From: Myxococcaceae bacterium | GTDB taxonomy: Bacteria > Myxococcota > UBA727 > JABDBI01 | DNA length: 64,000 nucleotides | Reading direction: 5' to 3' | Assembly: GCA_016000045.1 (NCBI GenBank) | Contig: JAECQY010000001.1 | Coordinates: 169,194 to 233,193 of the forward strand | Shown: positions 1,196 through 57,636 of the stretch, piece by piece | Layout of the letters: the number at the start of each line of letters is the position of its first letter | Position numbering within the stretch: position 1 is the first letter of the stretch | Notes under the pieces: generated by a model | Told to the model about the DNA's origin: nothing | Databases searched by the model: none | Seen by the model: the letters and a program-made list of their open reading frames with translations, nothing else | Made by a program: the position numbers and the translations under genes

Positions 1196-2656
1196 ATGAA
1201 ATTATTTCTTTGGGCAATAGTCGGAGTGAGTTGTTTGGGTAGGGCTGAGCCGAAGCCTAATTTTCCCTGTGATTTGCCAATGCTTCGATTCTCCCTTTCA
1301 TCTGTTTCGGAGCAAGCACTCCCAGAACCTGCGATTCCAGCGGTGGTGACCACGGTGACGCAAAATGGGGGTGCTGTATCTTCCGTTGTGAGCGCGATCA
1401 CGGCGGTTGGCCCGACTCAAGTTGCTCAGACGGCTCGCTCTGGATTAAGCCTGGATTTACTCGCTTGCGACGACGGCCTGCCCATGCAGGAAGGTCCGCT
1501 GGATTGGGCAGATAGCCCCACCCAGCTATCTTTGGGTGAGGGTTCGCTTCAGTACCATACTGGAGCTGTTCTGGGGAACTGGGTTTTGATGGTGGGAGCG
1601 GTGGGCGTATGGAGTGGGGTTGCTTACAAGCTAGGTCCTGAGGCGGCGCAGTTTCCCGGGAGTTTGATACTGCCGGCCCTGCTTTTGATAGTTCCCACCG
1701 TGACTTCTTCGTTCACGCTGGCGCGAGATGGGGACAAGTCTTTACAAACAGCCGGCTCGGTCTCGATCCTGGTATCGCTGGCCAGCATCGCTGCGGTTGG
1801 CGTCAAGGTATGCCCTCGGTTTTTTAAGGCGCGCTGGGAAGACTATGAGCATGAATGGGTCGATTTATCCAACGCGCAAAGAGGTTGGGTGGCACGGTAC
1901 GGCGAGTTGTTTGATACCTACGCCGCGGGCCGACAAGGCTATATCGTGGTTGAATTGTTGACTTCGGTAGGCGTGGGGACTCTTAAATCGTATCAGATTT
2001 TAGAACAAAACTGCCAGGAGTTGTTATGGGCAGGCATGGTTGTTTACGATGCTTATGCCATTTCGCAATTGGCTTTGCGTCCCAATCGCAATCGTCATGC
2101 TCAAATTTTTTACAGCGCCATCGCGACACTTCAAGCGACAGCCCTGACCTTGCAAGCCATTGTTTCCGTCTCCGCTTCCGAAGAAACACAAAGCAAAGTG
2201 AAAACCGTGACTCAATCGGTCGTGGTGGTGACAGAGTATATGATGATGATTAAGACCTTGTTTGACATGGGTTTGCGCGTCAAGAGTTGGTACGATCGAT
2301 ACTACCGGCTCCATTCGGTTTCACTTCCGAAGCAGTCTGCTGGGTTGTCCACCCCGCAGCAAAATACGCCGTTGGAGGAGATGCTATCGGTTGCTTTCGT
2401 ACCGCCTTCGCAAGATACGTTGGTGGGTGAAATGCTACCCCTTGCTTGTGTACCGCTTTCGCTGGACTCCTTGGAGCCTATTGTTCCAGAGGCTTTGTCT
2501 CCGAGCGCATCGGTGTCGGGCGAAGAAAATTTGAAAGCGACTTTAGTCAGCGACTTTGGTTTCTTGGTCGAACAGAGCTCTTCAGTGGCTCCTGTGCCCA
2601 AAAGTTTAAATGAGGTCATTGCCGAACTGATGCAACAGGAGAGTGATCTTGAATAA
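1196..2656 (+). CDS. Hypothetical membrane/secreted protein with N-terminal signal peptide and TM segments; Pro/Ser-rich C-terminus containing a ~45-bp internal tandem duplication
   Basis: Long ORF with signal-like start MKLFLWAIVGVSCLG. Hydrophobic segments are present. No family recognised. Its end overlaps the start of the downstream DUF1566 gene. Confidence 0.4.
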   Translation: MKLFLWAIVGVSCLGRAEPKPNFPCDLPMLRFSLSSVSEQALPEPAIPAVVTTVTQNGGAVSSVVSAITAVGPTQVAQTARSGLSLDLLACDDGLPMQEGPLDWADSPTQLSLGEGSLQYHTGAVLGNWVLMVGAVGVWSGVAYKLGPEAAQFPGSLILPALLLIVPTVTSSFTLARDGDKSLQTAGSVSILVSLASIAAVGVKVCPRFFKARWEDYEHEWVDLSNAQRGWVARYGELFDTYAAGRQGYIVVELLTSVGVGTLKSYQILEQNCQELLWAGMVVYDAYAISQLALRPNRNRHAQIFYSAIATLQATALTLQAIVSVSASEETQSKVKTVTQSVVVVTEYMMMIKTLFDMGLRVKSWYDRYYRLHSVSLPKQSAGLSTPQQNTPLEEMLSVAFVPPSQDTLVGEMLPLACVPLSLDSLEPIVPEALSPSASVSGEENLKATLVSDFGFLVEQSSSVAPVPKSLNEVIAELMQQESDLE

Positions 2657-4046
2657 ACAATGGCTGTTTTGTTTGTTGTGGTTGTCCCGTTTTGGGTTGG
2701 CTGGATATTTCAATGTGAGCGAAGTGCAGGACTCCATGGCGAATGAAGCGCTTTTTCAGCTGATTTCGAATCAGACCTGGACTGTGAACCAACAACAAGC
2801 ATTGATGTCGACGGGTCTTCGCGCTCTATTTCAATCGGTTTCGCCGCAAATCAAGTCGATGCCCGATTACACCGGGCAGTTTGTCGCAAATTGTTCGATT
2901 TTTCTGAATCTGCGCATCGAAGGAGTCGCTTGTGACGTGACGTCGGTCTCGACAGCGATGAAGCCGAGCGGTTATGATTTGAACTCGGCCCTTCGCTTGC
3001 CTCTGGAATACGCGACGCAGATCACACAAAGCGACATCATCTTGGTCAATCTTTACGCGGATTGGAGAGGTAAGACGACGGCTTACTCGGAGCAATATAC
3101 GCTTGGTCCATTTGCTCGAATGCGAACTTGTACGTCAACGCTCAGCGTGACGGATTCACCCGAAACCCCAAGCGGTTTGCTGAGTTCGAGTGAGAGCCTC
3201 GAAGAGTCTCAAACAGCCGCCCCGAGTGTGTCCAAACCCTTCAGTCTTAGTCCCAATGTTCTGGTTTCGGATTCTCACAGCATGAGTTCTACGAGTTCTG
3301 GCAGTAGTGCGTCGGTATCACTTTTGGTTTCTTCAAGCGCGAGTTCATCCGGCTGGTTCAGCGAGTCCAAAAGCCTGACCGAAGCCTTATCACTCAGCCA
3401 GAGTTCAAGTATTCAGGTTTCGGACTCTCGCAGCATGAGTTCTACGAGTTCTGGCAGCAGTGTATCAGCATCGCTTTGGGTTTCTTCAAGCGCGAGTTCG
3501 TCGGGTTGGTTCAGCGAGTCTCAAAGCTTGAGCGAAGCCTTATCACCGAGCCAAAGCTTCAGCAAAATCCTTTCGGGGACTTGTAGTCCGAGTGTGTGGG
3601 GCAGTTGCTTGGGCAATTCTACGGGTTTGGCTTATATTTGGTCTGGTAGTGCCATTTATTCAAACCCAACCAATCAAGCATCGCGTTATACGACCCCTGC
3701 GTCCGGGGTTGTAGGAGATAGTTTAACCGGTTTGCAGTGGGAGCAAGCCGCAAGTAGTAGCACGATGACTTGGAGTGCAGCAGGGACCTATTGTGCGGGC
3801 CGTACGACGGGTGGATTGAGCGGCTGGCGTTTGCCAAACGTGGATGAGCTTCAAACTTTAGTGGACTACACCACCTCCAGCCCAAGTATTAACTCGGCCG
3901 CATTTCCCAGTACACCGAGTAACTATTTTTGGACCTCGACCCTCTACCAACCGAACCCAACTTCCGCGTGGCTCGTCTATTTCTTTCGTGGCGACGTCGG
4001 CTTCAGTGATATGAGCAATAATGGCTTTGTCCGTTGCGCGCGTTGA
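2643..4046 (+). CDS. Secreted DUF1566 (Lcl C-terminal domain, C-type-lectin-like fold) protein with Ser-rich linker; candidate DGR variable protein 1
   Basis: C-terminal domain carries the WRLP..EL motif and the ...FWTST...VRCAR terminus typical of DUF1566. An N-terminal module is shared with the ORFs at 52139 and 54905. The gene lies 27 bp upstream of a DGR-type RT. Confidence 0.7.
   Translation: MILNKQWLFCLLWLSRFGLAGYFNVSEVQDSMANEALFQLISNQTWTVNQQQALMSTGLRALFQSVSPQIKSMPDYTGQFVANCSIFLNLRIEGVACDVTSVSTAMKPSGYDLNSALRLPLEYATQITQSDIILVNLYADWRGKTTAYSEQYTLGPFARMRTCTSTLSVTDSPETPSGLLSSSESLEESQTAAPSVSKPFSLSPNVLVSDSHSMSSTSSGSSASVSLLVSSSASSSGWFSESKSLTEALSLSQSSSIQVSDSRSMSSTSSGSSVSASLWVSSSASSSGWFSESQSLSEALSPSQSFSKILSGTCSPSVWGSCLGNSTGLAYIWSGSAIYSNPTNQASRYTTPASGVVGDSLTGLQWEQAASSSTMTWSAAGTYCAGRTTGGLSGWRLPNVDELQTLVDYTTSSPSINSAAFPSTPSNYFWTSTLYQPNPTSAWLVYFFRGDVGFSDMSNNGFVRCAR
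3264..3570 (+). repeat. Tandem duplication, 2 x 153 bp (51 aa), encoding a Ser-rich linker inside the DUF1566 gene
   Basis: Two near-identical units start with gtttcggaytctcrcagcatgagttctacgagttctggcag. In protein they read SMSSTSSGSS...SSSGWFSES. Confidence 0.75.
3921..4046 (+). other. Candidate DGR variable region VR-A (3' end of the DUF1566 gene)
   Basis: Compared with the paralogous segment 5951-6076, differences fall in codon positions 1-2 with the third base kept in 15 of 18 differing codons. Upstream of the block, differences between the two genes are ordinary synonymous drift. Confidence 0.55.
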
Positions 4047-4073: not shown

Positions 4074-5621
4074 GTGAAAAAAGGTTGGCCAACTTGGGAA
4101 AGCGTCGATCGAGCTGCGGCTGCTTGCGCCAAGCGCAAGCGAAGCAGACCCGATGCGATTGTTTTTCGGGCCCGCTACACAGAAGAGGTGCTGGACTTGT
4201 GCCAGCGCATTCGATCGGGAGAATACCGGCCCTCCTCGGGGACGGTTTTCGTGACCGATCGCCCAAAGACTCGTGAAATACACGCCTCTCATTATCGAGA
4301 TCGAGTGGTTCACCACCTGCTCCATGACCTGATTGAACCGCACTTTGAACAATCGTTTATTAAAGATTCGTACGCTTGTCGTAAAGGCAAAGGTTCTCAT
4401 GCTGCGGTAGAAGCCTTGCAAAAACACATGCAGCGAGCGACCTGTTATGGCAAAATACGTGCTTATGCCCTGCATCTCGATATTAGAAGTTTTTTCTTCT
4501 CCATTCATAAACCCACCTTGCTGGCTATTTTGGAGTCGAAGCAATGGTTTCGTGAGCAGGCGGAATTGCGGCATTTGACCACTTTGGTGATCAATCACCC
4601 CACTGCGCTGCATGCGAAGCCCTTGGGGCCACCAAGCTCGTTTGAACGAATTCCTCCGTTGAAGCGGCTTGGAGCTTTGGGGGAGGATCGAGGACTCCCC
4701 ATCGGCAATCTGACCAGCCAGTTGTTTGCGAATATCTACTTGGATGTCTTGGACCAGATGATCAAGCGTACTTTAGGGGCTCAATATTACGTCCGGTATT
4801 CAGATGATCTGGTCTTGTTGCACCGCGATGCGGATCAGCTCGCGAGCTGGAAGCAACAAATCATCGAGTTTTTGCAGCAAAGGCTAAAACTGGAGACGCA
4901 TGAGAAAGCGCCAATTCATCCGGTGAGCGAAGGTGTCGATTTTGTCGGGTATGTCATTCGTCCTGCTTACAAATTGTGCCGTGCACGCGTGATTCGGCAC
5001 GCTCACCAACGTATTACCGAGCTCGAAAAACCGCTACACCCTGAAGAACGAGAAGGTTATCAGTTCTGGCGAGTACGTCACAAGGACATCGAGGCTTTGC
5101 GTGCTTGTTGGGCAAGTTATGCGGGTCATTTGAAACATGCCAGTGCTTATCGAGTGGCTCAAAAGTTGCTCAAGCGGCACCCTATCTCTCAATTCTATTT
5201 GCGCTTTGAGATTGCGAAGCATGGAATTTCTGTGGCTCGGCGATTTGCTTTGCCTAAGATTGAGTCTTGTTGGAATCACCAAATCCATTCGTTGCATCAG
5301 AGCGTCTCGAAACCAGCGCTCCGATCGGCAGAGGGTTCTGCGGTGTTGTTGGTTCAAGTGGGTCGTTATGCCGAGTGTCCTTTGCAGAAGGATGCAGAGC
5401 GTTTGGAACTTCGTCGGGGCTTACCGTGGCGTCGCTTGCCTGAGATCATCGACCGAGCGGTTCAAAAGGGTCTGAAAGTGGCAGTGGCTGTTGAGTTTAA
5501 AAAATGCACAGGGCGTATTAGAGCTCGTTATTTGGCGTACTGGGTAGAACCCGTGGCGCGGCCGGTACTGCTTTCTGAAGGTTCTCCCAAGGCTGTGCAG
5601 TTGGAATTCGGGTTTTCATGA
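4074..5621 (+). CDS. Reverse transcriptase, diversity-generating retroelement (DGR) type
   Basis: RT motifs are present in order: RPKTREI, RDRVVHHLL, YACRKGKGSHAAV, LHLDIRSFF, LPIGNLTSQLFANIYLD (the IGxxxSQ substitution typical of DGR RTs), YVRYSDDLVLL and GVDFVGYVI. There is a ~200-aa C-terminal extension. The stop overlaps the next start (ATGA). Confidence 0.85.
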   Translation: MKKGWPTWESVDRAAAACAKRKRSRPDAIVFRARYTEEVLDLCQRIRSGEYRPSSGTVFVTDRPKTREIHASHYRDRVVHHLLHDLIEPHFEQSFIKDSYACRKGKGSHAAVEALQKHMQRATCYGKIRAYALHLDIRSFFFSIHKPTLLAILESKQWFREQAELRHLTTLVINHPTALHAKPLGPPSSFERIPPLKRLGALGEDRGLPIGNLTSQLFANIYLDVLDQMIKRTLGAQYYVRYSDDLVLLHRDADQLASWKQQIIEFLQQRLKLETHEKAPIHPVSEGVDFVGYVIRPAYKLCRARVIRHAHQRITELEKPLHPEEREGYQFWRVRHKDIEALRACWASYAGHLKHASAYRVAQKLLKRHPISQFYLRFEIAKHGISVARRFALPKIESCWNHQIHSLHQSVSKPALRSAEGSAVLLVQVGRYAECPLQKDAERLELRRGLPWRRLPEIIDRAVQKGLKVAVAVEFKKCTGRIRARYLAYWVEPVARPVLLSEGSPKAVQLEFGFS

Positions 5622-6076
5622 AATTTGCACTAGGTTGCCGAATCGCTTTACTCTTGAATATTGGCTTGCTCGCTTGGCCCTTGCTGGCCATTTGTCGTTA
5701 TACCAATGAAAATGGAGCAGCTCTGACCCCGAGTGATCAGACCGTTCGAGACAGCGTGACAGGGCTAGTCTGGCAAAGAACTCAAGCTGCTTCGACCATG
5801 TCTCAAACGTCTGCAGCCAGTTACTGCGCGTCTTTGAATCTCAATGGCTTTTCATTCCGTTTACCGACGGTTCGTGAATTGTCCAGCCTCGTGGACTTCA
5901 ATACCTCCAGTCCCAGCATTGACTCAACGGCTTTTCCGGGAACCTCTTCTAACTATTTTTGGACCTCGACTACTTACCAACCGATCCCAACTTACGCGTG
6001 GGTCGTCGATTTCTATGGTGGCTTCGTCGACTTCAATGCTATGGGCGGTGATAACTCTGTCCGTTGCGCGCGCTGA
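5618..6076 (+). CDS. Small secreted/lipoprotein-like protein consisting of a single DUF1566 domain; candidate DGR variable protein 2
   Basis: Signal peptide MKFALGCRIALLLNIGLLAWPLLAIC, then a DUF1566 domain (FRLPTVRELSSL...FWTST...VRCAR). The start is translationally coupled to the RT stop. Confidence 0.65.
   Translation: MKFALGCRIALLLNIGLLAWPLLAICRYTNENGAALTPSDQTVRDSVTGLVWQRTQAASTMSQTSAASYCASLNLNGFSFRLPTVRELSSLVDFNTSSPSIDSTAFPGTSSNYFWTSTTYQPIPTYAWVVDFYGGFVDFNAMGGDNSVRCAR
5951..6076 (+). other. Candidate DGR variable region VR-B
   Basis: See VR-A. It shares the invariant flanks aactatttttggacctcgac and gtccgttgcgcgcgYtgaggatggga. Confidence 0.5.
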
Positions 6077-6185
6077 GGATGGGATGTTGACCCTTTGCCT
6101 CTTCGACCTTTTAAAAAGGAAACGGAAGACAAGGGGGGCGAGACAAGCTCATGATGGACGATACTCTCTGCCAATCGCTTGTCGT

Positions 6186-52138: not shown

Positions 52139-54502
52139 TTGCGAATGGCGATTAAGAAAAATCTAAAAACCCAAGCACGGTGCTTTAGGCAAGCAAAGCT
52201 GCTGGTATTCTTAATTTGGGGACAAACCGCTGTTGCTGCCTGGCTTAATCAAAGCCAGGTAACGAATGCCGTGGCGAATCAGGCACTAACCCAGCTTGTT
52301 TCGAACCAGACATTGCCTGCCGCCCAGCAAAAACAATGGTTCTCGACCGGATTGAAGGCCTTGTTTGCCGAGCTAACTCCGGCGATTCAAGCGATGCCAG
52401 ATTATACGGGCCAGTTTGTAGCCAATTGTTCCATTTTCATGAACACTCACATCGAGCAGGTTTTGTGCGAGATCAACTCCACGACTGCTTTGGTGAGACC
52501 CGAGAGTTGCGGACAGAGTTCCTTACTTCCTTTGGAATATGAGCATCAAATTACCGAAAGCGCGATTTTGCTGGTGAGTTTTTACGCTGATTGGACGCGT
52601 AAGACGTCGTTATCCTCCGAATCTTATGCCGTTCGTTTGTTCGATCGGATGCCAACGTGCACCGCGTCTGCGAGCGTTTCAGAGACAGGGCCAATACTCA
52701 GCCAAACCTTGAGCCCTACTGAGTCTACCTCTTTGAATTTTACGATAAGCCCAAGTGCTCCTGTGGTTTGGAACCCCGAGTGGGCAAATTGGCAGATAAC
52801 GACCGGTGTCTATCAAGACAACGCCAATCAAACGGGCCGCTACCTTGAATCGGTTCCAGGAGTTATCACGGATCAAATGACGGGTTTGCAGTGGCAAAAA
52901 GTAGGGAGTGCGCCTGCGGGTAATTGGACGGCTGCGCAGGCCTATTGCGCTAATTTGTTTGAGTCTGGGTTTGGGGATTGGCGTTTGCCCGCGCACGTGG
53001 AACTTCAGACTTTGGTGGATTATACGATGGATTGCGCTGGTCCCAGCGTGGATCTGAATTTTTTCCCAGGCGCTCAAACCAGCAGTTACTATTGGTCCTC
53101 GGACGCTTTACAGGGTTACCCTGGCAGTGCTTGGTGGGTGAGCTACGGTAGTAGTGGTGCCTATTACGCAGGCCTCGTTTGCAGCCAGGGTTATGGTGCT
53201 TGTTCTTCAGTGCCTGCGAGCGGCTTTGCCCGTTGTGTGCGACCCTCGTTGGCAGATCGAGAGATAGATCGTTACACCTTTAATAGCACGCAGGTTCTGG
53301 ACACCGTAACGGGCTTGATTTGGCAGCGAACGGTTTCTGGAACTTATAACTGGGGTGCAGCGCAGGCTTATTGTGCGGGTTTGAATCTGGACGGTTTGAT
53401 CTGGCGTCTTCCGAATGTTAAAGAGTTATCGACGCTTCTGGATGTTCGCATAGCATCTCCGGGTCCGACGATCAATACGACGGCTTTTCCGAGTACACCT
53501 CAGGCTGGGTTTTGGACATCAACGCCTTGTTCGTGTGCGTCTTCATCCGTCGCGTGGCTGGTCGATTTCATCTATGGTTCTGTGTCCTACACTGGCATGG
53601 GCACTTTTGACTATGTTCGTTGTGTGCGCTCTCCTCAGGTTTACAATCCCGAGTGGGCGAATTGGCAAGTGACAACGGGCGTCTATCGAGACAACGCTAA
53701 TCAAACGGGCCGCTACCTTGAATCGGTTCCAGGAGTTATCACGGATCAAATGACGGGTTTGCAGTGGCAGAAAGTAGTGAGTGCGCCTGCTGGCAATTGG
53801 ACGGCTGCGCAAGCCTATTGTGCTAATTTGTTTGAGTCTGGGTTTGGAGACTGGCGCTTGCCCACGCACGTAGAACTTCAGACTTTGGTGGATTATACGA
53901 TCAGTTGCACTGGTCCCAGCGTGGATCAGGATTTTTTCCCAGGTACTCAAACCAGCAGTTACTATTGGTCCTCCGACGCTTTGCAGGGTTACCCTGGAAG
54001 TGCTTGGTGGGTGAGTTACGGCACCGGTGCCTATTACGCGGGCCTTGTTTGCAGCCAGGGCTATGGCGTCGCTTGTCCTTCGGTGCCCGCGAGCGGTTTT
54101 GCCCGTTGTGTGCGACCTTCGTCGGCAGAACGAGAGGAGGATCGTTATGCCTTCAACAGCACCCAGGTGCTGGACACCGTGACGGGCTTAATTTGGCAAC
54201 GGATGGTTTCCGGAACTTACAGCTGGAGTGCAGCGCAGGCTTATTGTACGGGTTTAAATCTGGACGGTTTGAGCTGGCGCCTTCCGAATGTCAAAGAGCT
54301 ATCGACGCTTCTGGATGTTCGCATGGCATCTCCGGGTCCGACGATCAATACGACGGCTTTTCCGAGTACACCGCAGGGCGGCTTTTGGACATCAACGCTT
54401 TATACGTGTTCCTCATCCAACGCCTGGGCGGTCTTTTTCGATAATGGCTACGTCGCCTTCAATGATATGAGCTCTTCTTACTGTGTCCGTTGCGCGCGTT
54501 GA
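52139..54502 (+). CDS. Large secreted protein with shared N-terminal module and four DUF1566 domains in two ~874-bp tandem units; candidate multi-VR DGR target
   Basis: Four WRLP..EL motifs. Units 52763-53636 and 53637-54502 are near-identical except at the tips of domains 2 and 4 (FWTST...VRCVR/VRCAR). Confidence 0.65.
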   Translation: MRMAIKKNLKTQARCFRQAKLLVFLIWGQTAVAAWLNQSQVTNAVANQALTQLVSNQTLPAAQQKQWFSTGLKALFAELTPAIQAMPDYTGQFVANCSIFMNTHIEQVLCEINSTTALVRPESCGQSSLLPLEYEHQITESAILLVSFYADWTRKTSLSSESYAVRLFDRMPTCTASASVSETGPILSQTLSPTESTSLNFTISPSAPVVWNPEWANWQITTGVYQDNANQTGRYLESVPGVITDQMTGLQWQKVGSAPAGNWTAAQAYCANLFESGFGDWRLPAHVELQTLVDYTMDCAGPSVDLNFFPGAQTSSYYWSSDALQGYPGSAWWVSYGSSGAYYAGLVCSQGYGACSSVPASGFARCVRPSLADREIDRYTFNSTQVLDTVTGLIWQRTVSGTYNWGAAQAYCAGLNLDGLIWRLPNVKELSTLLDVRIASPGPTINTTAFPSTPQAGFWTSTPCSCASSSVAWLVDFIYGSVSYTGMGTFDYVRCVRSPQVYNPEWANWQVTTGVYRDNANQTGRYLESVPGVITDQMTGLQWQKVVSAPAGNWTAAQAYCANLFESGFGDWRLPTHVELQTLVDYTISCTGPSVDQDFFPGTQTSSYYWSSDALQGYPGSAWWVSYGTGAYYAGLVCSQGYGVACPSVPASGFARCVRPSSAEREEDRYAFNSTQVLDTVTGLIWQRMVSGTYSWSAAQAYCTGLNLDGLSWRLPNVKELSTLLDVRMASPGPTINTTAFPSTPQGGFWTSTLYTCSSSNAWAVFFDNGYVAFNDMSSSYCVRCAR

Positions 54503-54540
54503 GGATGGGATGTTGATCCTTTGACTTTTGACCTTTTAAT

Positions 54541-54607
54541 AAAGAAAATGGAAGGCAGTAGGGCCCGAAATAGGCACTGGCTCGTTAGCTTCTGGGAAAG
54601 ATACGTT
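54541..54607. repeat. Intergenic repeat family B, copy 1 (~67 nt), downstream of a DUF1566 gene
   Basis: aaagaaaaYggaaggcagYagggYYcgaaataggcWctg...agcttSTgggaaagatacgtt. Second copy at 57570-57636; partial match at 6106-6125. Confidence 0.55.
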
Positions 54608-54807
54608 GCATGAAGTTCTTGAGGAAGACATCGCTGCTGTAGATGTCAAGTCGTTTCTTGGTAAGCGCTGGTCCTTGATGGGAGCGCAATTTCGTGCGAG
54701 TCATAGGATGAAATAGTGGTTGTCGCGTTTAGGGAGAGCACTTAGAGTGTATCGAGAGAATTGCTTCCGATTTGAGCGTTCGTTTGTATCCTTGCCTGCG
54801 TCGGGGT

Positions 54808-54817
54808 GGGGGGGGGG
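54808..54817. repeat. Homopolymeric G10 tract (preceded by GGGGT) ~87 bp upstream of DUF1566 gene 54905
   Basis: Direct read: tcggggtgggggggggg. Candidate slipped-strand phase-variation site in a promoter/5' UTR. Confidence 0.5.
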
Positions 54818-54904
54818 TAAATATAGTCATTTTAACTGTTTCATATTTGAATTTAATAATATATACTTGATTCAACTTCGCCCCCATGAGAAGGGGTGTG
54901 AACG

Positions 54905-57445
54905 ATGAATCGGTATTTGTGCTCCTGGCTGTTATTGCTGTCTTTACCGGTTCAAGCGGGTTTTGTGCTTCGAGAAGGCTTCTCCGAAGTTCTGAGTCAA
55001 CAGTTTTCAAATCTGACGCAGCTTAAGAATCAAACGAGCTCTTTATCCAAAGAGCTTGTGACACAAAATGCCATGAGGGGATTATGGTCTCTCATTGGGC
55101 CTCATCTTCAAGCCTTACCGGGTTGTTGTAAGAAGCCTTTTAGCTCAAATTGCTCTGTGTTTTTCGATGCCGAAATTGATGAGGTTGTGTGTGATGCGCA
55201 ATTTGAAGAGGTTCAAGCAATTTCGACATCTTGCGAAGCCGAGCAACGGTTTCCAGTGGGTTATTTGGCGCAGTTACACAAGAGCAATATTCTCCAGACG
55301 CGCATTGTCGTGGGTCTGGCGCCTGTGCAACATCCGCAGGTGATGTATTGGTTGTATGATAAATTGCCACCGACGCTTTCACAATCTGTGACACAATCAA
55401 ATTCCATGAGTGGCCGCAACACTCAAACCGGCACAGATTCCGCAAGCCCGATGAATAGCACCACGGATTCTGTTGGCCCAACGAGTAGTTTTACAGAGAG
55501 TTTATTGTCGAGCAGGAGCGTGTCGTTTAGCTCAACTGCCACTGAATCATTGACTCCAAGCCATTCGGTTGCAACAGAATCGGCTAATCTGTCGCATTCT
55601 TTGAGTGGGAGCACTGTTCCGTGCACGAGCGAGAGCTTGTCTCATTCTCAAACTTTGAGTTCTACCCAGTACCCATCGTTCAGTTCAAGCCTGAGTCCCA
55701 GTGCTCCCGTGGTTTGGAACCCTGAGTGGGCGGATTGGCAAGTGACAACGGGTGTTTATCGAGATAATGCCAATCAAACGGGCCGCTATTTTGAATCCGT
55801 TCCGGGGGTTATCACGGATCAGATGACGGGTTTGCAGTGGCAAAAGGTAGGGAGTGCATCTGCGGGCAATTGGATTGCTGCCCAGGCCTATTGCACAGAT
55901 TTGTTTGAGTCTGGGTTTGGAGACTGGCGTTTGCCCACGCACGTGGAACTTCAGACCTTGGTGGATTATACGATCAGTTGCGCTGGGCCCAGTGTGGATC
56001 TGGGTTTTTTCCCAGGCACGCAAACCAGCAGTTACTATTGGTCCTCCGACGCTTTGCAGGGTTACCCTGGGAGTGCTTGGTGGGTAAGTTACGGCAGCGG
56101 TGCTTATTACGCGGGTCTCGTTTGCAGTCAGGGCTATAGCGGTTGTTCTTCAGCGCCTGCGAGCGGCTTTGCCCGTTGTGTGCGATCCTCATCGGCGGTT
56201 CGAGAGGTGAATCGTTATGCCTTTAATAGCACCCAGGTACTGGACACGGTGACGGGCTTGATTTGGCAACGAACGGTTTCCGGAACTTACAACTGGGGTG
56301 CGGCGCAAGCTTATTGTGCGGGTTTGAATCTGGATGGTTTGAGCTGGCGCCTTCCGAATGTCAAAGAATTATCGACGCTTCTGGATGTTCGTGTGGCATA
56401 CCCGGGTCCAACGATCAATACGACGGTTTTTCCGAGTACACCGCAGAGCGGCTTTTGGACCTCAACGCCTTATTCGTGTGTGTCTTCATCTAACGCGTGG
56501 TTGGTTGGTTTTGACTGTGGTTACGTCATCTTCAATGGTTTGAGCCCTGCTGGCTATGTTCGTTGTGTGCGCTCTCCTCAGGTTTACAATCCCGAGTGGG
56601 CAAATTGGCAAGTGACAACCGGTGTCTATCAAGACAGCGCCAATCAAACGGGCCGCTACCTTGAATCGGTTCCAGGAGTTATCACGGATCAAATGACGGG
56701 TTTGCAGTGGCAAAAAGTAGAAAGTGCGCCTGCAGGCAATTGGACGGCTGCGCAGGCTTATTGTGCTAATTTGTTTGAGTCTGGGTTTGGAGACTGGCGT
56801 TTGCCCACGCACGTGGAACTTCAGACCTTGGCGGATTATACGATCAGTTGCGCTGGGCCGAGTGTGGATCCGGACTTTTTCCCAGGCACTCAAACCAGCA
56901 GTTACTATTGGTCCTCAGACGCTTTGCAGGGTTACCCTGGCAGTGCCTGGTGGGTGAGTTATGGGAGCGGTGCCTATTACGCAGGCCTCGTTTGCAGCCA
57001 GGGTTATGGTGGTTGTACTTCAGTGCCTGCGAGCGGCTTTACGCGTTGTGTGCGACCCTCGTCGGCGGTTCGAGAGGTAGATCGTTATACCTTTAATAGC
57101 ACACAAGTTCTGGACACCGTAACGGGCTTGATCTGGCAACGAACGGTTTCAGGGAATTACAACTGGGGTGCAGCGCAAGCTTATTGTGCGGGTTTAAACC
57201 TCGACGGTTTGAGCTGGCGTCTTCCCAATGTCAAAGAATTGTCAACGCTTCTGGATGTTCACGTGGCATACCCGGGTCCGACTATCAACACGACGGTTTT
57301 TCCAGGCACGCCTCAGGCCTGGTTTTGGACATCAACGCCTTATTCGTGCGCGTCCCCGTCCGGTGCGTGGGGCGTGGATTTCGGTAATGGCGGCGTCTTC
57401 ACGGTTAGCATCAGCAATACTTACTATGTTCGGTGCGTGCGTTGA
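54905..57445 (+). CDS. Large secreted protein with Ser/Thr-rich linker and four DUF1566 domains in two ~867-bp tandem units; candidate multi-VR DGR target
   Basis: Signal peptide MNRYLCSWLLLLSLPVQAG. Units about 55718-56584 and 56585-57445. Hypervariable tips on domains 2 and 4. Confidence 0.65.
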   Translation: MNRYLCSWLLLLSLPVQAGFVLREGFSEVLSQQFSNLTQLKNQTSSLSKELVTQNAMRGLWSLIGPHLQALPGCCKKPFSSNCSVFFDAEIDEVVCDAQFEEVQAISTSCEAEQRFPVGYLAQLHKSNILQTRIVVGLAPVQHPQVMYWLYDKLPPTLSQSVTQSNSMSGRNTQTGTDSASPMNSTTDSVGPTSSFTESLLSSRSVSFSSTATESLTPSHSVATESANLSHSLSGSTVPCTSESLSHSQTLSSTQYPSFSSSLSPSAPVVWNPEWADWQVTTGVYRDNANQTGRYFESVPGVITDQMTGLQWQKVGSASAGNWIAAQAYCTDLFESGFGDWRLPTHVELQTLVDYTISCAGPSVDLGFFPGTQTSSYYWSSDALQGYPGSAWWVSYGSGAYYAGLVCSQGYSGCSSAPASGFARCVRSSSAVREVNRYAFNSTQVLDTVTGLIWQRTVSGTYNWGAAQAYCAGLNLDGLSWRLPNVKELSTLLDVRVAYPGPTINTTVFPSTPQSGFWTSTPYSCVSSSNAWLVGFDCGYVIFNGLSPAGYVRCVRSPQVYNPEWANWQVTTGVYQDSANQTGRYLESVPGVITDQMTGLQWQKVESAPAGNWTAAQAYCANLFESGFGDWRLPTHVELQTLADYTISCAGPSVDPDFFPGTQTSSYYWSSDALQGYPGSAWWVSYGSGAYYAGLVCSQGYGGCTSVPASGFTRCVRPSSAVREVDRYTFNSTQVLDTVTGLIWQRTVSGNYNWGAAQAYCAGLNLDGLSWRLPNVKELSTLLDVHVAYPGPTINTTVFPGTPQAWFWTSTPYSCASPSGAWGVDFGNGGVFTVSISNTYYVRCVR

Positions 57446-57476: not shown

Positions 57477-57570
57477 ATTGGCAATAAGCTCCAAAGTTTA
57501 CGGAAGTAATTGAGAACCCAATTCATGACAGCGCGTCTAAACGCCATAATTTATTTTGACGGGAACCGAA
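57477..57570. repeat. Intergenic repeat family A, copy 2
   Basis: See 12089-12180. Confidence 0.6.
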
Positions 57571-57636
57571 AAGAAAACGGAAGGCAGCAGGGTTCGAAAT
57601 AGGCTCTGAGGCGGCAGCTTGTGGGAAAGATACGTT
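57570..57636. repeat. Intergenic repeat family B, copy 2
   Basis: See 54541-54607. Confidence 0.55.

Follow-up and report, generated by a model that had tools for sequence, protein, structure and literature searches.

Most of the closest described systems lie in the promoters of genes for surface proteins. In Treponema pallidum, poly-G tracts of 7 to 11 G control outer-membrane-protein genes and vary in length within isolates, the tract of tp0126 lying between the −35 and −10 elements and that of tprL four nucleotides before the transcription start site (TSS) (PMC7864442). The same source summarises Neisseria meningitidis, in which a poly-G tract lies in the promoter spacer of porA and a poly-C tract over the −35 element of opc, tracts that alter −35/−10 spacing or overlap the −35 element (PMC7864442). 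In Helicobacter pylori, length changes in a T-tract upstream of the −35 element of sabA alter how upstream elements line up axially with the core promoter, and the resulting adhesin output is multiphasic (PMC4081817). The same species carries a variable run of G upstream of the coding sequence of tlpB, and the mechanism by which it acts requires both that the tract be transcribed and that a cognate small RNA, RepG, be present (PMC8295292).

The tract considered here was read directly from a 64-kb stretch of DNA (hereafter the window) and consists of GGGG at 54803-54806, a single T at 54807 and then exactly ten uninterrupted G at 54808-54817, all on the plus strand; positions 54800-54819 read gtc GGGG T GGGGGGGGGG ta. 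The preliminary description had placed the G10 correctly and had given the right distance, 87 nt (54818-54904), between it and the ATG at 54905 of ORF 54905-57445. The longer string that it quoted, ggggtgggggggggg, is also present, although the GGGG-T-G10 element (54803-54817) starts one base earlier than was given. The single T may have shortened a tract that was once longer. The coordinates of the features in its surroundings are collected in Table 1.

Table 1. Features around the G tract and elsewhere in the window, in window positions.
Feature	Position	Strand	Basis or details
Diversity-generating retroelement (DGR)-type reverse transcriptase, 515 aa	4074..5621	+	RVT_1 E = 8e-15; IGNLTSQ and YSDD motifs
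Tandem paralogue ORF 52139 (785 aa from ATG 52145)	52145..54502	+	Four Lcl_C domains, Pfam E = 1.2e-102
Hypervariable tips, ORF 52139	53510-53628 and 54383-54502	+	Internal (end of domain 2) and terminal (end of domain 4)
Conserved post-gene element	54503..54607	+	Repeats at 6077-6131 (86%) and 57570-57636 (84%)
AT-rich promoter-like stretch	54818..54879	+	Directly 3′ of the tract; contains both predicted sigma-70-like sites
Predicted promoter candidate 1, TTAACT-17-AATAAT	54832..54860	+	Consensus scan, 9/12 matches
Predicted promoter candidate 2, TTCATA-16-TATACT	54840..54867	+	Consensus scan, 9/12 matches
Predicted 5′-leader hairpin	54867..54913	+	RNA fold of 54866-54925
ORF 54905, 846 aa	54905..57445	+	Pfam PF07603 (Lcl_C/DUF1566), E = 4e-107, 4 stretches
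Hypervariable tips, ORF 54905	56453-56571 and 57323-57445	+	Internal (end of domain 2) and terminal (end of domain 4)

Homopolymers of G or C become hypermutable at about eight or more uninterrupted residues, and the G10 has the repeat length of a simple-sequence contingency locus subject to slipped-strand phase variation. It is the sole G/C run of at least 7 in the window, which otherwise has three G6, no G7 to G9 and only C runs shorter than 6. About 35 kb from further contigs of this organism likewise lack any G/C run of at least 7. The number of such runs expected by chance was estimated with three null models. An independent-base (i.i.d.) null predicts about 0.075 G runs of at least 10 per window, a G10 or C10 was present in 5 of 100 dinucleotide-preserving shuffles, and the window's own decay of G/C run lengths, a factor of 0.16 per added base, leads to 0.0036 expected runs of at least 10. 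The chance expectation per window thus varies with the null model, from 0.004 to 0.06, and across the three the tract is a clear local outlier (p about 0.004-0.05 per window). The tract is a genuine exception in a genome where G/C runs are otherwise avoided. As a separate observation, G/C homopolymers are strongly depleted across the whole window, with about 20 runs of at least 6 estimated under the i.i.d. model and only the three G6 and one G10 seen, and A/T runs reach 8-9.

These estimates bear on the explanation that competes most directly with a regulatory one, namely that the G10 is mutable and has no regulatory role, having perhaps arisen as a side effect when recombination or duplication produced the tandem pair of Lcl_C genes. 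We regard this as a serious possibility, only a little less likely than the reading preferred below, and weigh it at several points. By the dinucleotide shuffles, a G10 or C10 is to be expected in about 5% of stretches of 64 kb, so a few such runs per genome would arise by chance, as an incidental tract requires. In contrast, the genome appears to purge G/C runs, with no runs of 7-9 and only 0.004 runs of at least 10 expected from its own decay, and since such runs are otherwise so strongly avoided, persistence of the G10 by drift alone is unlikely.

Only one further assembly of this organism is available, GCA_015999675.1, and its contig JAECQV010000018.1 carries the G10 with flanks identical to those of the window. 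The overlap of 10,067 nt contains a single difference, a synonymous one at 56758, and the tract is internal to both contigs with unique flanks. No polymorphism of tract length was seen between these two consensus sequences, which are too few to refute length variation, and which are perhaps not independent, as the protein accessions MBH1989488.1 and MBH2005940.1 suggest a single study. The shared G10 is also what an incidental tract would give.

Homopolymer lengths are error-prone, and the run could in principle be an artefact of assembly or sequencing, either dark-cycle poly-G or a homopolymer miscall. We consider this extremely unlikely, given that the tract lies inside its contigs between unique flanks and is the same in two assemblies with a single SNP between them elsewhere. 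MiSeq four-colour chemistry gives no dark-cycle poly-G. The run SRR9332771, which contains the organism (its contig L002 matches the window without a difference across 6,472 nt), is a MiSeq, and hence four-colour, data set (PMC7012980). The organism is also present in SRR12691405, as judged by matches to the paralogue P0015. Logan contigs assembled from two independent runs share their break points, which fall just outside Lcl_C genes: L002 starts at window position 57529, 84 nt past the stop codon of ORF 54905, and L086 and L087 start 299 nt before the start of P0015. These shared breaks are consistent with a repeat or with population heterogeneity at the Lcl_C loci.

The product of the gene downstream of the tract begins with a signal-peptide-like N-terminus and continues with a lineage-restricted N-domain, a linker rich in Ser and Thr, and four Lcl_C (DUF1566) domains; NCBI names it 'DUF1566 domain-containing protein [Myxococcaceae bacterium]'. 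From these features the product is predicted to be secreted or surface-exposed and to carry four lectin-like DUF1566 domains, in agreement with the earlier view that the gene encodes a surface protein. Variable expression is typical for ligand-binding surface proteins of this class. The tandem paralogue immediately upstream, ORF 52139, has the same four-domain body (repeat families D1/D2).

The two genes are separated by 402 nt, made up of a 105-nt repeated element followed by 297 nt of unique sequence (54608-54904) that holds the tract. The repeated element is non-coding, starts TGAGGATGGGATGTTGAYCCTTTG, follows the stop codons of Lcl_C genes and forms the 5′ quarter of the intergenic region, excluding the G tract; at ORF 54905 it is displaced about 125 nt downstream of the stop codon. 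It may be a DGR target-recognition element or a terminator-like element. The tract itself was considered as part of this element or of any other repeat and was rejected as such, 54608-54904 being unique in the window. It was likewise rejected as a DGR homing (IMH) element, since 300 nt separate it from the upstream variable tip and the shared 3′ element does not include it.

Several paralogous loci differ in their layout, in that the Lcl_C gene is overlapped by an upstream gene, which has no Pfam match where this was checked. The overlapping pairs are 2635-4050/4001-5711 on contig L085, 1061-2656/2643-4046 in the window and 118-303/300-3065 on Logan contig L086, and the upstream partner is a 471-aa or 531-aa protein or, on L086, only a called ORF of 61 aa. 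This suggests a conserved two-gene module at Lcl_C paralogues that is absent at ORF 54905. We would also like to note that P0009 (789 aa) and P0121 (811 aa; L089 4001-6436) are the same paralogue with N-termini annotated differently in the two metagenome-assembled genomes (MAGs) of this species, one annotation including a signal peptide that the other lacks; either the annotation or the 5′-end sequence differs.

To place the tract within its family, the upstream regions of seven other family genes (ORFs 1061/2643, 5618 and 52139, and P0004, P0015, P0007 and P0121) were compared, and none has a G/C tract, which makes the tract specific to ORF 54905 among the genes compared. By N-domain, the closest paralogues of ORF 54905 are P0003 (MBH2006195.1) and P0009, both in the window's own MAG, and P0003 is the closest when the signal peptide is considered as well. 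Searches with the full-length protein retrieved a family of paralogues from this species and, at greater distance, homologues from related MAGs. Searches with the N-domain alone returned no matches, a JGI metagenome scan for relatives of the N-domain found none, and a JGI metagenome scan with both flanks of the tract and a variable gap between them (CCTTGCCTGCGTC N8-30 TAAATATAGTCAT) gave 0 matches. A scan of species-representative genomes with the neighbouring M50 protease gave a top-ranked identity of 44%, with none above 50%. In the absence of a close relative in that scan there is no synteny to compare, and neither the flank-anchored DNA pattern, the N-domain query nor the genome scan found an orthologous locus. 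The distant M50 protease, together with a GC content of about 49%, also means that the placement implied by the NCBI label 'Myxococcaceae' is to be read loosely. The window additionally carries FliP/FliR/FliN-like genes and an OmpH gene, which had pointed to a chlamydial origin; this was rejected, as the names given by NCBI and the best matches indicate Myxococcota-like MAGs.

Contingency loci usually occur in sets, and no second tract of this kind was found in about 100 kb of this genome. The lack of a tract pattern across the family or genome, and the uniqueness of 54608-54904, which has no counterpart beside the paralogues, both favour an incidental origin.

Directly adjoining the tract is a block of about 60 nt with a GC content of 0.15-0.175 (40-nt windows within 54820-54879), against a window mean of about 0.49, so the AT-rich, promoter-like context reported in the preliminary description is borne out. 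A consensus promoter scan of 54300-55100 returned five sigma-70-like sites where 0.9 were expected, two of which overlap each other within the AT-rich stretch; these are consensus predictions in a lineage whose promoters are uncharacterised. With candidate 1 the inferred TSS would be at about 54867 and the G10 at about −59 to −50, and with candidate 2 the inferred TSS would be at about 54874 and the G10 at about −66 to −57. In either case 14-22 nt would lie between the tract and the candidate −35 hexamers downstream of it, with the tract outside the predicted −35/−10 spacer and outside the reading frame of ORF 54905. With these predicted promoters the classic spacer-length ON/OFF mechanism would not apply, which weakens the ON/OFF switching that had been proposed for the tract. 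Any effect of a tract upstream of the −35 element would need an upstream activator or an effect on DNA geometry. We therefore find a rheostat or activator phasing more plausible than a clean ON/OFF switch. No activator-type signs, i.e., inverted or direct repeats or palindromes, were found upstream of the tract.

Our preferred reading, to which we give a probability of roughly 40%, is that the G10, a slippage-prone repeat bordering the promoter on its upstream side, adjusts transcription of ORF 54905 through spacing and phase. The simple-sequence repeat would occupy about −50 to −66 of the predicted promoter. Replication slippage, to which we infer the tract to be prone in this organism, would add or remove a G, and each G would change both the spacing and the helical phase (about 34 degrees per base pair) of the upstream DNA with respect to the core promoter. 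The partner on the upstream side would be an activator site or the contacts made by the alpha subunit of RNA polymerase. The outcome would be graded, heritable and reversible changes in transcription, amounting to a rheostat or an activator-phasing switch.

Position cuts both ways here. An incidental tract could have been tolerated because it lies outside the core promoter, and upstream of the −35 element a length change is often without effect, as in the pyrG T-tract control, which was unaffected (PMC4081817). Nevertheless, the G10 exactly borders the AT-rich promoter block of a surface-protein gene. Of the phase-variation switch proposed earlier there remain a real and anomalous tract, of a length prone to slippage, and the AT-rich block beside it, set against a constant length in the two assemblies and the tract's being the only one of its kind. 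Overall, we regard the tract as a plausible promoter-proximal homopolymer contingency locus, and as a candidate only.

Measured against the systems described above, the G10 resembles the tracts of T. pallidum tprE/G/J, tprL and tp0126 in lying upstream of the gene for a predicted outer-membrane or surface protein. The T. pallidum tracts, however, lie inside the core promoter, are many per genome and have had their variation measured, whereas the tract here is a singleton upstream of the predicted −35 element, and variation was not observed between the two assemblies (PMC7864442). Like the tracts of porA and opc it is a G/C homopolymer at the promoter of a gene for a surface protein (PMC7864442), and by the predicted promoters it would neither alter −35/−10 spacing nor overlap a −35 element. 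With sabA it would share the placement of a homopolymer upstream of the −35 element, but in sabA the homopolymer consists of T/A, is embedded in A-box/UP-like DNA and reaches the −35 element itself, whereas the tract here is made of G and is followed by 14-22 nt of AT-rich DNA before the candidate −35 element, with no UP-like elements identified upstream (PMC4081817). By analogy, then, the tract would be closer to the sabA rheostat than to the spacer tracts of tp0126 or porA.

The likeness to tlpB, a G run upstream of a coding sequence with possible action at the RNA level, leads to a further alternative, in which the tract is part of a transcript, one that runs on from ORF 52139 or begins upstream of the tract, and acts in the leader. 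It could do so as the target of a C/U-rich small RNA, as with RepG and tlpB in H. pylori, or as a competitor of the GCCCCC / GAAGGGG hairpin in which the ribosome-binding site would be hidden. No intrinsic terminator was predicted on the plus strand in 54300-55100, including between the upstream paralogue and the tract, which speaks for this alternative and also means that read-through from the paralogue could bypass any promoter effect. The tract was itself examined as a terminator and rejected, as CCUUGCCU...GGGUGGGG can pair but is not followed by a T run, and the scan found no plus-strand terminator. In the predicted leader hairpin (−20.3 kcal/mol; z = −2.49 relative to 200 shuffled sequences), GCCCCC is paired to the Shine-Dalgarno region (GAAGGGGUG) and the AUG is base-paired as well; the C5 arm (54880-54884) is also a complement of the G run. 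The first base of this hairpin coincides with the inferred TSS of candidate 1, a point in favour of our preferred promoter-edge reading, and a longer fold (54790-54925) contains the same stem. Taken as a folding prediction, the pairing of the Shine-Dalgarno region and AUG suggests translational control or stabilisation of the 5′ end. In the minimum-energy fold of 54790-54925, however, the partners of the G run are the upstream CCUUGCCU and coding sequence, not the C5 arm (overall z = −1.9), and the 336-nt intergenic RNA shows no structure beyond that of shuffles (z = +0.7). The intergenic region also matched no Rfam family above sub-threshold noise, a search of the window giving only a tRNA elsewhere, and no cognate small RNA of the kind that acts on tlpB (RepG; PMC8295292) was identified. 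An RNA-level role for the tract is thus rather unlikely.

The G run also falls inside a small ORF, 54720-54908 (62 codons, TTG start), that is open only in the G10 register, so that tract length could gate translational coupling to ORF 54905 as a frameshift switch. The TGA of the small ORF overlaps the ATG of ORF 54905 (ATGA), and by inspection a G11 would lead to an immediate TAA and a G9 to a TGA at 54867-54869. Against this, the TTG start has no evident ribosome-binding site, the ORF crosses the AT-rich promoter block and was not called on the NCBI contig, its peptide has no recognisable features, and one of three frames being open for 62 codons is unremarkable. As such, we hold a frameshift switch to be highly improbable.

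Irrespective of length variation, GGGGTG10 could form a G-quadruplex or another non-B structure that modulates promoter opening or replication. With 14 G in 15 nt on the non-template strand beside an easily melted AT-rich block, the sequence is suited to this, and one more G would, by inspection, make a canonical G3-N-G3-N-G3-N-G3 motif possible. The G10 state, on the other hand, permits only two-tetrad arrangements, and there is no conservation evidence for such a structure. We consider it very unlikely to be the main role of the tract.

The gene controlled by the tract, if our preferred reading of a promoter-edge repeat holds, had also been described as belonging to a DGR family. A reverse transcriptase (RT) with a C-terminal extension of about 190 aa lies 50 kb upstream of ORF 54905, between the Lcl_C ORFs 2643-4046 and 5618-6076. 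Its best solved-structure match is 8ub7_A (328 aa, E = 7e-35), which bears only the depositor's name 'Reverse transcriptase' and which we take to be the DGR RT of a Bordetella phage. This match is far better than those to group II intron RTs (6e-11) or retron RTs, and the window thus holds an RT of the DGR clade, one of the features by which a DGR target gene is assigned. No recognisable avd-like accessory gene was found in the 64-kb window.

A second such feature is a variable region, and the DUF1566 tips vary mainly at codon positions 1 and 2. Three of the tips were tested for codon position, namely the internal tip of each protein and the terminal one of ORF 52139. Within the last 105 nt of the tip-bearing domains, 20/22 and 20/26 of the mismatches between paralogues fall at codon positions 1 and 2, whereas in the scaffold 27/39, 15/21, 26/37 and 40/76 of the mismatches fall at position 3. 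This is the pattern that would be expected from AAY-codon mutagenesis or from strong diversifying selection. Internal variable regions are unusual in DGR targets.

None of the six tip segments compared shows a template role, the fraction of mismatches involving A being 0.06-0.30, and an A-tolerant scan of both strands of the whole window, at 120-nt and 50-nt resolution, found no template repeat with A-specific mismatches; the DGR template could lie outside the window. The end of ORF 52139 matches the flank of ORF 5618 at 86% over 56 nt, and the 3′ flank of ORF 54905 (TGAAGACGGGATTTTTAC) has diverged farther from the RT-adjacent element than that of ORF 52139. At the head of the RT/Lcl_C cassette, an inverted repeat of 148 nt (601-748/941-1088, 96% complementary) encloses 192 nt and lies directly upstream of ORF 1061-2656, overlapping its start; the enclosed segment holds short GGGTTAT-like repeats and is unique in the window, and the whole could be an invertible segment or a cruciform.

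DUF1566 is a recognised class of DGR target, and targets that are not adjacent to the RT are known (PMC5758913). ORF 54905 resembles the DUF1566/CLec2 targets such as Legionella LdtA in its variable C-terminal tips, in the presence of a DGR-type RT in the same region and in lying apart from that RT; it differs in that the window has no A-to-N template repeat and no recognised avd-like gene, and in that each protein has both an internal and a terminal tip (PMC5758913). As such, the RT 50 kb away, the DUF1566 fold and the codon-position signature of the tips partly uphold the earlier DGR-family label, while the template repeat that would complete it was not found in the window. 'DGR-family protein' is a reasonable description of the fold and the pattern of variation, and current DGR targeting of ORF 54905 is unproven.

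At present the tract is a reasonable annotation flag for a possible phase-variable promoter and not a discovery; the kind of locus is already well known, and the tract would be a new instance of it. A full-text search for literature joining diversity-generating retroelements with homopolymeric phase variation, with relevance judged by title, returned nothing on topic. We regard it as improbable that, in this free-living, myxobacterium-like organism, two hypermutation systems are stacked on ORF 54905, a G-tract rheostat acting on amount and a trans-acting DGR 50 kb away acting on the two tips. If the tract does act as proposed, it would be a case of simple-sequence contingency regulation in an environmental, non-pathogenic and uncultured lineage. 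If both systems did act on this gene, variation in how much is made and in which specificity is displayed would be joined on one surface lectin, and the logic of contingency loci would extend beyond host-adapted pathogens and be coupled to retroelement-driven diversification.
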